A DNA stretch of 64,000 nucleotides, from positions 64,001 through 128,000 of IMG/VR virus record IMGVR_UViG_3300032220_000699. One strand, given 5' to 3'. The position numbers and the translations under genes were made by a program. The DNA is from a virus. The notes beneath the pieces are model-generated. The model saw only the letters and a list, made by a program, of their open reading frames with translations, made no database searches and was not told where the DNA came from. Below, piece after piece: positions 89 through 33,597 of the stretch; position 1 is the first letter of the stretch; every line of letters begins with the position of its first letter.

Positions 89-2263
89 CTAAAGGTTTAA
101 GGCTAAAAACTCTAATTGGTCATCACTAGATTGGTTTACCATCCAGGCTGAACCACCTAAATCATTTACAACTTTATTATTAAATAAAAGGTCTACTTTA
201 CTAGTAGATTTACTACCAAATTCTAGTTTAGGAAGAAGTTCAAGTTCATACTTTTCAAGATAACTAAATCCATGGTTAATAACCTGATCGAATTCTAAAG
301 TTTCATCGAGAAGAATTTTATAACCCATATCAATATTTAACTTAAAGAAATCATAATAATATAAACGACTATTTATATCTTCGCTGACAGAACAGCGATT
401 ATCTTTAGGTCCACACAAAGTAGGACTGCTGCTGTAATAGTCATTGATAAGTTGAATTGTATAACTATTAAATTTCTTAAATACTTCAACGAGAGCTTTT
501 TGAATAGTCTTATAACTATTAATAAAGTCAAGTTTATTGTCATAAAGATTATTAAGAATTGAGTAACTCATAGATTCCATAGCACTTGAATCATAAGTCA
601 TTAAATCACTGATACCGATACGAATTAAAAAGTTTTGAACTGTTTCATTATTAAATGTGTAGGTGTCAGACTTACACATTCTTTCAATCATATATTCAAA
701 CTGACCATTGATATCTTTATCGCTATAGTTACATGTGAGCAACCATATTCCGATATTTAAGTTATAAATAGATGAAATGTATTCTTGACACTGTGAACTT
801 GTTGTAACAAAGCTATAGGTAGGAATGCTGTTACGAATATCGTCAATAGTGTCATGGTACCAATATTGAGGATTATAACACATCCCGATAAGCTGCTGTG
901 TCGTAGGAAGATTTTCCTTGAACACACGCTTAATACAGTAGTCTGGAAAATCTGTTAACTCAACATTATTAGATTTATAAAGAACAATTACAAACAACTT
1001 GAAAAGATCTTTAGTTGTTAATTTAAGTTCATTGTTAGTTACAGGGTCTACTATTGTAACAAGATAGTTCATCTTGTTAGTTTTCAATAAATATGCCCAA
1101 TAATCGATAAGCGTAGGAATAAGTTTATGACGAACTGTGTCTGTATTGTCAACAATGATTGTTTCTAAGTCTTTTGTAAGCAAAGTGCTAAATAAAGAGT
1201 TCTTAAATTTATGATCAATAGTTTTAATGTTATAAGTTAACTCTTTAGGATTGCCATGAGTCAATCCAACTTCCTTTGCCTTAATATTGTCCAATGAAAA
1301 ATCATTCGGAGAATAAACAAGGTCAGCTTTATTCAGAAGTTTTTGATTACAGCGATACTTAATGTAATCAGAATCATCTGTATCATTTTCTTGTTTATAG
1401 ATATAGTTCACGAGAGAAATATTTCTATCAGTGAATAACTTATCAATAAGAATATTAAATGTGCTATTATGTCCAGCGTGATTATCAAGATACAATAAGT
1501 TTCTATAAAGGAACAAAGACTGTTTCTTAGTTAGGTAAGTATAGCTTTCATCGAGATAGTGATGACTAGCTAAATAGTTTTTAATGTGGAAAGTATGTGC
1601 TTTCAAAGTCTTAGCATTCTTTAAACGAATAGCCAAGATTTTCATTAGAATGAAGTTATAGAATACGTGATACTGACTAGCTAAGAAAAGATTATCAGAC
1701 AACGTATAATAAGGAATCATACGAATGTTCTTATAGTTATCAATTGCTTGTTGAAGTTCATACATGAGATCATGTTCATTTTCTTCAACTAGCTCAGTAG
1801 CATACGACACAATACTAAAATTCTCTAAACCAATAACTTCTTGAATTGTGTTATAGCGTTTATCACAAATAACAGCTTTAATGTATAACTCTTGTTCTGG
1901 AAATAGATCAATAATCTGTTTATAAAATAAGCCGAACTTTAAAAGTTCTTTCTTCGTTTTACGATGGAGATTAAGAATATTGCTATCCAGAGGAATGGAA
2001 GTGCCATTGTCCAGAGAAGTAATAACAATCTGAGTGTCCACCGCATGATACTCGCCCATTAAATGCTTATAATAACGCCATGTTGTTTTGTCAGATAAAT
2101 CTACAACATATGAAGGATAAGCAAGTTTAATATAGTCGTTATAAAGTTTTGCCTCATTATCATTTTTAATATTGATCGATTTGGTTAAATTGATCGTGTC
2201 TTTAATATATGTGTTAGCTAAGATATTATTACCTAATATCTTTTCAATGATCGGAGTAGACAT
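89..2263 (-). CDS. phiKZ-like virion structural protein (possible baseplate component)
   Basis: 724-aa ORF in the structural block next to the tail fibre and portal; position and composition resemble conserved phiKZ-family virion proteins; exact role not determinable. Confidence 0.6.
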   Translation of the reverse strand: MSTPIIEKILGNNILANTYIKDTINLTKSINIKNDNEAKLYNDYIKLAYPSYVVDLSDKTTWRYYKHLMGEYHAVDTQIVITSLDNGTSIPLDSNILNLHRKTKKELLKFGLFYKQIIDLFPEQELYIKAVICDKRYNTIQEVIGLENFSIVSYATELVEENEHDLMYELQQAIDNYKNIRMIPYYTLSDNLFLASQYHVFYNFILMKILAIRLKNAKTLKAHTFHIKNYLASHHYLDESYTYLTKKQSLFLYRNLLYLDNHAGHNSTFNILIDKLFTDRNISLVNYIYKQENDTDDSDYIKYRCNQKLLNKADLVYSPNDFSLDNIKAKEVGLTHGNPKELTYNIKTIDHKFKNSLFSTLLTKDLETIIVDNTDTVRHKLIPTLIDYWAYLLKTNKMNYLVTIVDPVTNNELKLTTKDLFKLFVIVLYKSNNVELTDFPDYCIKRVFKENLPTTQQLIGMCYNPQYWYHDTIDDIRNSIPTYSFVTTSSQCQEYISSIYNLNIGIWLLTCNYSDKDINGQFEYMIERMCKSDTYTFNNETVQNFLIRIGISDLMTYDSSAMESMSYSILNNLYDNKLDFINSYKTIQKALVEVFKKFNSYTIQLINDYYSSSPTLCGPKDNRCSVSEDINSRLYYYDFFKLNIDMGYKILLDETLEFDQVINHGFSYLEKYELELLPKLEFGSKSTSKVDLLFNNKVVNDLGGSAWMVNQSSDDQLEFLALNL

Positions 2264-31450: not shown

Positions 31451-31600
31451 TTATGCTTCTTTCTTTTTACTGAACTTCGCAGTGAGAGAATCCTTCATAG
31501 CTTTAGCTTTCCAACCAAGCCAGAAGAATAGGACACCAGTCATTCCCATTGCAAGAATAACGTCACCCCGTCCTGCGAATATACCAACCGCTGTGTTCAT
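31451..31600 (-). CDS. 49-aa single-TM peptide (not in ORF track)
   Basis: MNTAVGIFAGRGDVILAMGMTGVLFFWLGWKAKAMKDSLTAKFSKKKEA; ATGA overlap with the lipoprotein stop. Confidence 0.65.
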   Translation of the reverse strand: MNTAVGIFAGRGDVILAMGMTGVLFFWLGWKAKAMKDSLTAKFSKKKEA

Positions 31601-32049
31601 TTACCGGTGAACGACTTGAATGGCAGCTTAATGCCGAGGTTACACTGCTTCAGCTCTTTGTAGAAAGCAGTATCGATAAAGTCCTTCTCAAGGAAGCAAC
31701 CCATCTGAGCAGAGTGGGTCGAGCAGTAAGCCTTGTACTTTTCGACTTCCTTGGTCTTCTCGTTCTTTTCACCCATGAACGAAACCCAGATCCAACCGGA
31801 ACCTTGCAAGCACTCGGATGTCATCATCAAATCAGGATGAGTCACAATCTTCATACCAGTAAGGCGTGGATTAGCATCACGATACTCACGTGCCAGTGTA
31901 TCGGCATTGCTGATCGTGGTGGCACGATAAGAGTCCAGGATATCAGCATTGCGGATAGCCAGTTCATCCTTCGTTGGTGCGCGTTCACCACAACCAACCA
32001 TGATGAATGCGGCCAGAGCAATACAAACCATACCAAACATCTTCTTCAT
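31597..32049 (-). CDS. predicted lipoprotein
   Basis: MKKMFGMVCIALAAFIMVGC lipobox; 150 aa; GGAG RBS. Confidence 0.72.
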   Translation of the reverse strand: MKKMFGMVCIALAAFIMVGCGERAPTKDELAIRNADILDSYRATTISNADTLAREYRDANPRLTGMKIVTHPDLMMTSECLQGSGWIWVSFMGEKNEKTKEVEKYKAYCSTHSAQMGCFLEKDFIDTAFYKELKQCNLGIKLPFKSFTGK

Positions 32050-32099
32050 ACGAAACTCCTTTTTATTGAAAGTTGCTACTGGAAAAAACAAAATAAAAA

Positions 32100-32122
32100 G
32101 ACATGAACTATTTGTTCATGTC
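32100..32122 (-). terminator. terminator closing the tRNA-Leu/ncRNA/tmRNA transcript
   Basis: GACATGAAC-tattt-GTTCATGTC hairpin with U-tract on the minus strand. Confidence 0.75.
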
Positions 32123-32251
32123 TGTAAGGAAAGAGAAGGTCCACCTGCCTATTTGGGTAATAAGGACTCCGTCATGATCGGGAGAGCAGGTGGCTTGGAA
32201 GACCGAAGTCAACCAATGACCCCATCGCTAGTCAACTTAGGCTAACCGCTG

Positions 32252-32299
32252 TTAGGCGGCGAGCTTCAGCTGAGGTGCGAACTGTGCATCATTTGCGGC
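32252..32299 (-). other. tmRNA tag reading frame AANDAQFAPQLKLAA*
   Basis: Follows ATAACT (typical pre-resume context); AANDxxxA start and LAA end; TAA stop. Confidence 0.85.
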
Positions 32300-32387
32300 A
32301 GTTATTGAGTTTGCTAGATTTACGTCATTCGCCTGACGTGTCGTTCCTTATCCACTAGTTATGCGCTGTCGAAACCTGTACATCCCC

Positions 32388-32504
32388 ATCAGAGACAGTC
32401 TGAACCAATCGGTCACAATTAACACGTTGACTGCGGTTTTATCCGGAGGCGCTTAACTGTAAATGCCGTTCGCCTTAAACAAGCAAACGCAACCAGACTG
32501 TCTT
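32388..32504 (-). other. tmRNA intervening segment (117 nt)
   Basis: Between the CCA and the 5' G; closed by 10-bp inverted repeat AGACAGTCTG (32393-32402) / CAGACTGTCT (32494-32503). Confidence 0.8.
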
Positions 32505-32624
32505 TGGTGGAGATGGGGGGAATCGAACCCCCGTCCAACACACTTTCATTTCTAAAGTCTCAGAGAGTTACCTCTCCATACGACAATATTCCTTCGCCAT
32601 TGATGAGCATGGGCCGAAGATTGA

Positions 32625-33120
32625 AGCTAGTTAGTCCTCGGGCATTCTATCCCGAATTAGATGCTCTCACATCCCACTTGTTTTAAAGTTCCTGGTGAGA
32701 GACCAGATCCTCTTTGTCAAGCGTTTACGTCAATGTCCGTAGAACTAAAAAGCAAACTTGCCTGGTTACACATCCAGGTTGCTGGGATTAAGCAATGCGA
32801 ACGGATCTACATTTCAATAGTCCGGTTGTTAATCGAATTACACTTATAGATGAGCGACATCTATAAGACACTTGTGAAAGGTCCCACTTTCATCAAGAAC
32901 TGAGCATGTAAGAGCTAAAGATATGGCAGTGGAGAGATCATGTTTAGACGTGACCATGACCCCTAAACCCCACTATTCTGTCTCGATGTAGCAGACCGCG
33001 ATATCCACATCATCGTCGAGCCATATCCTTAGCAAACTAGTCGGGATTCGTCCTAGCCTTAGACGATATCTCTCCGAGATAGTGAGGAAGTTGAACCTCA
33101 CATAAATCCCTTACTCGTAG
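32625..33120 (-). ncRNA. candidate large structured ncRNA of unknown class
   Basis: No genuine ORF; many helices including a 14-bp long-range stem (32914-32927 with 33020-33033) and a 10-bp hairpin (32843-32867). Confidence 0.6.
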
Positions 33121-33511: not shown

Positions 33512-33597
33512 TGGTGCCGGGAACGGGAATCGAACCCGTACACTCAATGAGCGAGAGATTTTAAGTCTCTTGTGTCTACCAATTTCACCACCCCGGC
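33512..33597 (-). tRNA. tRNA-Leu(TAA)
   Basis: Full cloverleaf with long variable arm, AGAGA-CTTAAAA-TCTCT anticodon arm, encoded CCA. Confidence 0.95.

Follow-up and report, generated by a model that had tools for sequence, protein, structure and literature searches.

A permuted tmRNA gene on a viral contig

The 64,000-nucleotide (nt) stretch of DNA analysed here (the window), bases 64001-128000 of the IMG/VR virus record IMGVR_UViG_3300032220_000699, carries on its minus strand a locus that, judged by its sequence, is a phage-encoded, circularly permuted, two-piece transfer-messenger RNA (tmRNA, ssrA) gene, in which the parts predicted to serve alanylation and tagging are all present. ARAGORN places a permuted tmRNA, the sole tmRNA that it finds in the window, at 32161-32597 (-), gives it the tag AANDAQFAPQLKLAA*, and the gene passes two Rfam families, namely, tmRNA_permuted (RF04321), at 102 bits against a cut-off of 47 (E 1e-18) with the full model, 1-213, covered, and beta_tmRNA (RF01850), at 96.2 bits against a cut-off of 84 (E 6e-28). 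The Rfam match is far beyond chance, and the RF01850 score lies above the curated cut-off and is better than the scores of the alpha and cyano models. Gene order was tested as well: the T-arm and the acceptor 3' strand lie upstream of the 5' half, with an intervening sequence between them, which is the permuted form. The alanine identity set is complete, comprising a 7-bp acceptor stem, G3-U70, the discriminator A73 and an encoded CCA, and the tag frame runs from an alanine resume codon, GCC, over 15 codons to an (L/A)AA-type end followed by UAA.

Other tmRNA models fit the locus poorly. When the whole genome was searched, the alpha two-piece model reached 32.7 bits, below its cut-off of 50, and the cyano two-piece model 48.1 bits, below its cut-off of 70. 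The one-piece model (RF00023) stopped at 37.1 bits, short of its cut-off of 47, with a match that consists only of the 73-nt tRNA-like end (32505-32577). An earlier note on this DNA had named a better one-piece model as grounds for giving up the permuted reading; with the one-piece score below its cut-off, that reading stands, and ARAGORN and the permuted-tmRNA covariance models, which the note had proposed as a check, both call a permuted tmRNA. Its expectation that standard annotators may miss such a gene is not borne out: ARAGORN and Rfam call this one at default settings. Public records can leave such genes blank all the same: the RefSeq record of Pseudomonas phage SM1 has no feature at its tmRNA.

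Sequence that resembles tRNA in a phage could also be a fragment arisen by chance, a pseudo-tRNA or what is left of an integration site, and fragments of ssrA are indeed common in temperate phages as attachment-site remnants (PMC9004378). For this locus, such an origin is barely credible: neither half is missing, nor are the tag frame and the P2 helices, the family E value is 6e-28, a tyrosine integrase was sought in the genome and not found, and the full-length family matches refute it.

Anatomy of the two pieces

Read 5' to 3' on the minus strand, the acceptor piece comes first. Its 5' end would lie somewhere upstream of the outer P2 strand UGUCGU (32580..32585), which is predicted to pair with ACGACA of the coding piece (32344-32339). 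Between this strand and P2a stands an extra hairpin, GGAGAG-GUAA-CUCUCU, with a GNRA loop (32562..32577; fold z-score -2.7). The acceptor-piece strand of P2a, GUGUGUU (32537..32543), is followed by a conserved GGAC and then by the T-arm, GGGGG-UUCGAUU-CCCCC (32532-32516), which is placed by both the 3' tRNA domain of ARAGORN and the Rfam alignment. The piece closes with the acceptor 3' strand CAUCUCC, the discriminator A and the encoded CCA (32515-32505), so that its predicted 3' end is 32505. An intervening sequence of 117 nt (32388..32504), with no gene inside, leads to the coding piece.

The coding piece opens at 32358..32387 with GGGGAUG (G1 = 32387), the D-arm analogue GGUUUCGAC and the P2a strand, a segment recognized by the 5' tRNA domain of ARAGORN and by Rfam. 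Its P2a strand, AGCGCAU (32367-32361), forms 7 bp with GUGUGUU, and its outer P2 strand, named above, forms 6 bp with UGUCGU. The earlier note had described the T-arm/CCA half as preceding the GGGGAUG half, a perfect 7-bp acceptor stem with G3-U70, P2 helices pairing across the pieces and an intact tag frame, and all of this is upheld: the halves lie at 32532-32505 and from G1 at 32387 onwards, on either side of the spacer; the acceptor stem is GGGGAUG/CAUCUCC, with the U-G pair invariant in 13/13 aligned sequences; P2a and outer P2 are both there, with compensatory changes in relatives; and the frame reads GCC GCA AAU GAU ... GCC GCC UAA. The processing sites that had been predicted, 32505 and 32387, coincide exactly with the CCA end and with G1.

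Directly after the outer P2 strand, at the position of pseudoknot PK1, comes the hairpin CGUCA-GGCGAA-UGACG (32338-32323), which matches the <<<<____>>>> element of RF01850. A PK1 pseudoknot formed by pairing of this loop with the resume codon (GGCG/UGCC) was considered and dropped, as its position shifts between relatives. The tag frame called by ARAGORN (32252..32299) consists of the resume codon GCC, the 15 codons of AANDAQFAPQLKLAA and the stop UAA, and is preceded by UA at -5/-4 before GCC, as in relatives; the stop codon lies within a hairpin, GCCGC/GCGGU (32260-32245). Further downstream, the hairpin UUGGUUGAC-UUCG-GUCUUCCAA (32195..32216), whose counterpart in the uncultured relative L149 is UUGGUUUAA-GCAA-UUAAACCAA, falls on the terminal hairpin of RF01850 in the Rfam alignment. 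Beyond the Rfam match lies a 3' domain of 53 nt (32141..32193), in which the stem CCACCUG/CAGGUGG encloses the hairpin CUCC-CGAUCAUGAC-GGAG, together with the segment CCUUAUUACCCAAAUAGG. After the gene comes a dedicated and strong predicted intrinsic terminator with a 10-bp stem followed by a U-run (32099..32123; z-score -6.8).

Covariation in the cross-piece helices

The comparative evidence comes from a MAFFT alignment (A1) of this gene with 12 relatives, comprising 3 close uncultured copies, 4 other phage copies and 5 genes of Rhodocyclaceae. With pairs counted on the structure derived from the sequence of this gene, the acceptor stem and T-arm are paired in 100% of cells across the 13 aligned sequences. 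P2a is paired in 82% of cells, and double changes turn UA into CG and UG into GC there; outer P2 is paired in 72%, the misses being the bacterial rows, displaced by one column in the MAFFT alignment. Double changes occur at 15 pairs vs 8.4 in shuffles, and the covariation score is 0.179 vs 0.096 in shuffled alignments and at most 0.072 with slid partners. Compensatory changes in the P2 helices are seen in L149, in the second uncultured relative L148, in other phage copies and in the bacterial relatives alike; the outer helix, for instance, reads UGUUGU/ACAACA in L149 and GGUUGU/ACAACC in L148. A minimum-energy co-fold of both pieces offers an alternative to P2a that lacks comparative support, and covariation was therefore used for P2a.

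When Rfam aligns the gene to RF01850, pairs in the outer helices are flagged as non-canonical, and the 3' domain is left outside the model, in an order that differs relative to the UUCG hairpin. Comparison of the sequences suggests that the non-canonical outer-helix pairs are an alignment artefact and that the true partner is the UGUCGU strand further upstream; the mis-pairing would arise from the hairpin inserted in the acceptor piece.

The spacer between the pieces

The 117-nt spacer folds on itself with a minimum free energy of -41 kcal/mol (z-score -3.7; 0/200 shuffles as good). An 11-bp helix closes it, beginning 1 nt after CCA and ending 5 nt (CUGAU) before G1. In relatives, the spacers are of unrelated sequence and range from 6 to about 150 nt, the longest being that of the uncultured relative L150, and they are closed likewise, with UGAU at the end. 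Such self-closure is, by analogy, what a precursor cut by RNase P and trimmed at its 3' end would be expected to show, a view that goes back to work on the two-piece tmRNA of Caulobacter, as cited in PMC11915505 and PMC9004378. The idea that the spacer carries a gene or is a repeat was discarded: it contains no open reading frame (ORF), and a search of the genome and of the retrieved loci gave no second copy.

A subfamily with a conserved 3' domain

L149 (a Ga0307508 contig; tag AANDEQFRAAA) and L148 (a Ga0196971 contig; tag ANDAEYAVKAAA) were both found with a pattern that combined P2a and the T-arm, and L150 (IMG/VR 3300017646_000001, 117 kb; tag ANDSQFRAAA) with a pattern of the 3' domain. 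All three pass RF04321, and L149 also passes RF01850. With gapped columns excluded, L149 is 73% identical to this gene, and its tRNA-like domain 91%. Like this gene, the three relatives have an inserted acceptor-piece hairpin, a long self-closing spacer ending in UGAU and an (A)AND tag start; unlike this phage, they have unrelated flanking genes, a G+C content of 43-54% vs 37%, and tags of 10-12 codons. The stems of the inserted hairpin vary, being AGGGA-GUAA-UCCCU in L149 and GGGA-GCAA-UCCC in L148, and L150 has a larger hairpin at the same position, so that a GNRA loop caps the inserted hairpin in 3/4 members of the subfamily. The inserted GNRA hairpin is absent from bacterial beta-type genes and from most phage ones. 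Within IMG/VR, the subfamily pattern of P2a and T-arm and a back-translated tag pattern each gave 0 matches. In L148, a tRNA gene (954-1040 (-); RF00005, 49 bits), to which ARAGORN gave no anticodon assignment, starts directly at the 3' end of the tmRNA gene, which it slightly overlaps.

The 3' domain is common to this phage, L149 (649-701, +) and L150 (4180-4226, +). Its 7-bp closing stem is fully different yet complementary among them, CCACCUG/CAGGUGG here, GCUGUCA/UGACGGC in L149 and GCCCGGA/UCCGGGC in L150, although covariation for elements specific to the subfamily, such as this one, rests on three or four sequences. The inner hairpin, CUCC-CGAUCAYGAC-GGAG with a 10-nt loop, is invariant in the same three genes. 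A 15-mer of the loop had 48 matches in IMG/VR, all unrelated, mostly coding and with no tmRNA nearby, which we attribute to chance. The domain had no Rfam family match even at E up to 10, and blastn found no match to it in cultured phages; the proposal that it is a glutamine riboswitch or a member of another Rfam family was abandoned on the former result.

Within the 3' domain, the segment CCUUAUUACCCAA is identical to the terminal domain of the phage copy L020 and resembles the bacterial beta-type CCUUGUAACCCAAG, and it is because of this likeness that we prefer to regard the domain as the terminal, pseudoknot-like element of beta-type tmRNA, into which one hairpin has been inserted. A separate grafted module, for example, one that binds a ligand or protein and gates tmRNA maturation or downstream read-through, seems rather improbable by comparison; it would be analogous to the glutamine riboswitch reported at the 3' end of the ssrA gene of phage Melnitz.

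The phage and the neighbourhood of the gene

The record has 189,134 bp, is 94% complete and has 37% G+C. By its capsid and polymerase pieces, the virus is a phiKZ-like giant phage: its major head protein of 717 aa is of phiKZ type (PHROG 3231, E 5e-156), and further matches are a piece of phage RNA polymerase (PHROG 2943), a phiKZ-type virion protein (PHROG 3004) and a ribonucleotide reductase. A tblastn search with the capsid protein returned 222 phage records, mostly phiKZ-like, the best being Bacillus phage AgentSmith, at 62.6% identity. The genome of AgentSmith contains no tmRNA of either form. Searches of IMG/VR by a neighbouring protein or by the capsid returned no close relatives. Among lysis enzymes, which were surveyed for inference of the host, there is no Amidase_2, and one SLT domain lies within a 1207-aa virion-type protein, so that nothing is decisive; nor does the type of tmRNA say anything about the host.

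The absence of the gene from AgentSmith, together with the lack of a close copy of the tag in IMG/VR and a G+C content of the gene of 49% vs 37% for the genome, might be taken to mean that the tmRNA is a neutral passenger, recently picked up from a phage or bacterium, without benefit and perhaps decaying. We consider this very unlikely, as none of the functional elements is damaged, structured RNA genes normally have a high G+C content, and L149, L148 and L150 differ from this gene at 27-45% of aligned positions with the helices kept by compensatory change, which points to long-term selection on the subfamily.

On the side of transcription, no promoter was identified directly upstream of the tmRNA. 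A recurrent intergenic motif, ACATATATA, is a probable phage promoter element; its copy nearest upstream of the tmRNA lies at 33633-33625, just before tRNA-Leu (33512-33597), and there is no minus-strand terminator between tRNA-Leu and the tmRNA. Exact copies of the motif number 14, all on the minus strand (16219, 19508, 25305, 28611, 30208, 30913, 33625, 33934, 34652, 47448, 49019, 51464, 57210 and 59443), and, with one mismatch allowed, there are 45 matches in the window vs 30 expected and at most 43 in shuffles. A single transcription unit that runs from tRNA-Leu over a 110-codon ORF and about 500 nt of structured non-coding sequence to the tmRNA is plausible from this layout. The structured stretch, 32625-33120 (-), is the roughly 500 nt upstream of the tmRNA and has several strong hairpins; it contains no ORF of at least 60 codons on the gene strand, and Rfam gave nothing for it with E values up to 5 allowed. 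On the other side, just past the tmRNA terminator, the ORF at 31597-32091 (-) begins MKKMFGMV...FIMVGCGE, which resembles a signal peptide with a VGC of the lipobox kind; the product may be a lipoprotein, and neither PHROGs nor Pfam has a family that matches it.

The window contains six tRNA genes, and a role often discussed for phage tRNAs is to replace host tRNAs that have been cleaved. This richness in tRNA genes, and the dependence on host SmpB, which is discussed below, would suit a counter-defence role in which the phage tmRNA specifically rescues ribosomes stalled by host anticodon nucleases or mRNA-cleaving toxins, a role that the earlier note had inferred and that is compatible with the mechanism proposed below. 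That the gene serves such a role specifically is nevertheless unlikely: no defence or counter-defence gene is linked to the locus, where the neighbouring ORFs have no family match; the same type of tmRNA occurs in unrelated phages of many hosts, which suggests a general benefit, not a defence-specific one; and AgentSmith, the closest cultured relative, does without the gene.

Proposed maturation and function

We consider it probable that this is a complete permuted ssrA gene of the betaproteobacterial type in a virulent phiKZ-like phage, that its RNA is processed by the host, and that it adds ribosome rescue. The anatomy, the family match and the covariation described above are observations; transcription, processing, charging, tagging and the benefit to the phage are read by analogy with the biology of tmRNA in Caulobacter and E. 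coli. SmpB was sought in the whole genome and not found, so that the absence of smpB from the window, which the earlier note had recorded, extends to the whole 189-kb record. The sequence supports a working tmRNA, one that would have to use host RNase P, alanyl-tRNA synthetase, EF-Tu, SmpB and proteases.

In the scheme that we propose, a single precursor transcript would extend, possibly from the ACATATATA motif before tRNA-Leu, to the terminator at 32123-32099, and the spacer, folded on itself, would make the region resemble a tRNA precursor. Host RNase P would then cleave before G1 (32387), and host 3' processing would trim the acceptor piece to the encoded CCA (32505). The acceptor piece and a coding piece of about 290 nt would remain joined by about 20 bp, of which the acceptor stem contributes 7, P2a 7 and outer P2 6. 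Charging by host alanyl-tRNA synthetase would proceed via G3-U70/A73, and host SmpB and EF-Tu would bring the RNA to ribosomes stalled at mRNA ends. Translation would resume at GCC and add (A)AANDAQFAPQLKLAA, leaving the C-terminal tag AAANDAQFAPQLKLAA on the protein, with an AAND start and an LAA end that correspond to the classic adaptor and ClpXP degron elements. The net effect would be more capacity for ribosome rescue, under control of the phage, during the shutdown of host gene expression, and added rescue during host shutdown is, by the same analogies, the simplest benefit that can be envisaged.

Several points weigh against this interpretation. The middle part of P2 and PK1 are modelled without confidence, and the Rfam pairs there are non-canonical, apparently owing to the inserted hairpin. 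The fit of the RNA with host SmpB is an assumption. The lack of a promoter directly upstream of the tmRNA has been mentioned. Finally, because AgentSmith has no tmRNA, the gene is accessory and dispensable in this group of phages.

The tag itself prompts another explanation. Tags of relatives all begin with (A)AND and all end in (L/A)AA, and this tag has 15 codons vs 10-12 in relatives, the additional residues coming after the conserved AAND..F start and before the LAA end; compared with the 10 codons of the bacterial beta lineage, there are at least 5 extra residues in this position. The phage RNA might be a modulator that competes with host tmRNA for SmpB and ribosomes and, through the altered adaptor spacing of its longer tag, shifts protein destruction, or else reports on the translational state of the host, for which there are parallels: phage DS6A has a tag-less tmRNA that reportedly inhibits the tmRNA of its host (PMC11915505), and tmRNA as a sensor of host state has been mentioned for huge phages (PMC7162821). 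We find this quite unlikely, as both degron ends are intact and the tRNA-like domain is canonical, which makes ordinary tagging the simplest expectation.

Relation to known two-piece tmRNAs

Permuted tmRNAs in phages are already on record, and this gene, as a further example, is nothing unusual. Buchholz et al. 2022 (PMC9004378) described a two-piece ssrA in the OM43 phage Melnitz and, surveying 18,146 phage genomes, arrived at 133 unique tmRNAs, of which 53 were permuted, and Al-Shayeb et al. 2020 (PMC7162821) reported tmRNAs and SmpB in huge phages, so that complete two-piece tmRNAs in lytic phages have published precedent (PMC9004378; PMC7162821). The view in the earlier note that phage tmRNAs are mostly one-piece is accordingly out of date, given that proportion and the beta-type copies in at least 6 phage records other than this one. 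Permuted genes are listed in Table S1 of PMC9004378 for phages that infect Caulobacter, Synechococcus, Pelagibacter, Stenotrophomonas, Citrobacter, Bordetella, Sphingobium, Streptomyces and Pseudomonas (SM1), and the same source attributes permuted tmRNA to pelagimyophages, cyanomyophages and phiCbK-like Caulobacter phages; there is no phiKZ-like phage among the Table S1 entries examined. The published phage genes resemble this one in being complete two-piece ssrA genes of lytic phages, without an integrase and near tRNA genes. The copies in Melnitz and pelagiphages are of the alpha type, with a 3' glutamine riboswitch, whereas this gene is of the beta type and its 3' domain matches no family.

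The beta type is also found in SM1 (NC_041877.1), whose permuted tmRNA reaches 111 bits with RF01850 and has the tag ANDTSFDVRLAA. It corresponds to L199 1183-1625 (-), about 53.6-54.1 kb of NC_041877.1, beside tRNA-Arg, and is listed as 'Permuted' in PMC9004378; by blastn, its tRNA-like end is shared by PaMx31, FBPa45, UF_RH6 and PA_L9. In IMG/VR, a 22-nt pattern led to five contigs that pass the beta_tmRNA cut-off, and those with long records have no phiKZ-type capsid. The tmRNA-carrying contigs L008, L009 and L010 were considered as kin of this phage and set aside, as they have no capsid match. L009 (4301-4661) and L010 (5202-5562), of 242 kb and 172 kb and 32-33% G+C, have permuted tmRNAs that pass RF04321 (81 bits) and not RF01850; the tags that ARAGORN assigns to them, of 21 residues ending in VLA, are atypical, and the tag call may be wrong.

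The present locus therefore adds a phiKZ-like phage to the carriers of the beta-type two-piece tmRNA and provides a sound annotation for a type of gene that is often left blank in public phage records. It opens no new question, and, beyond a subfamily that is small and well defined and whose conserved 3' hairpin has no assigned function, it gives no special handle on the matter of tmRNA in lytic phages that are devoid of SmpB.

A Rhodocyclaceae-like permuted tmRNA occurs as well in a genome labelled Pseudomonas indica NBRC 103045 (L085 84-413 (+), NZ_BDAC01000014.1), with the tag ANDERFAVAA and a local G+C content of 64%. The genus Pseudomonas, including Pseudomonas aeruginosa, the host of phage SM1, has a one-piece tmRNA. 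The permuted gene of P. indica, unexpected for the genus, may reflect taxonomy, transfer or contamination. That SM1 infects P. aeruginosa shows that the beta-type two-piece RNA circulates among unrelated phages whatever the form of the host tmRNA.

The processing scheme finds its model in Caulobacter crescentus, where tRNA-processing enzymes cut a single precursor into base-paired acceptor and coding RNAs (Keiler, Shapiro and Williams 2000, as cited in PMC11915505 and PMC9004378). That tmRNA is experimentally shown and belongs to the alpha lineage, whereas the gene described here, as noted, falls short of the cut-off on the alpha model (32.7/50) and is known from its sequence. Sharkady and Williams 2004, cited in PMC9004378 and PMC11915505, are the source for the betaproteobacterial two-piece tmRNA as the 'third lineage'. 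With the Rhodocyclaceae genes (Azonexus, Dechloromonas, Azoarcus; RF01850), the phage gene shares the gene order, the break point and a tRNA-like domain of 83-85% identity, as well as P2a and outer P2, the hairpin at the PK1 position, a tag of the form AND..F...AA and the terminal CCUU..ACCCAA segment. It differs from them in encoding CCA where they have ACCC, in the T-loop UUCGAUU vs UUCGACU, in the leader UGAU vs GGU before G1 and in a spacer of 117 nt vs 25-43 nt, and it further has the extra GNRA hairpin, the expanded 3' domain and a tag of 15 vs 10 codons.

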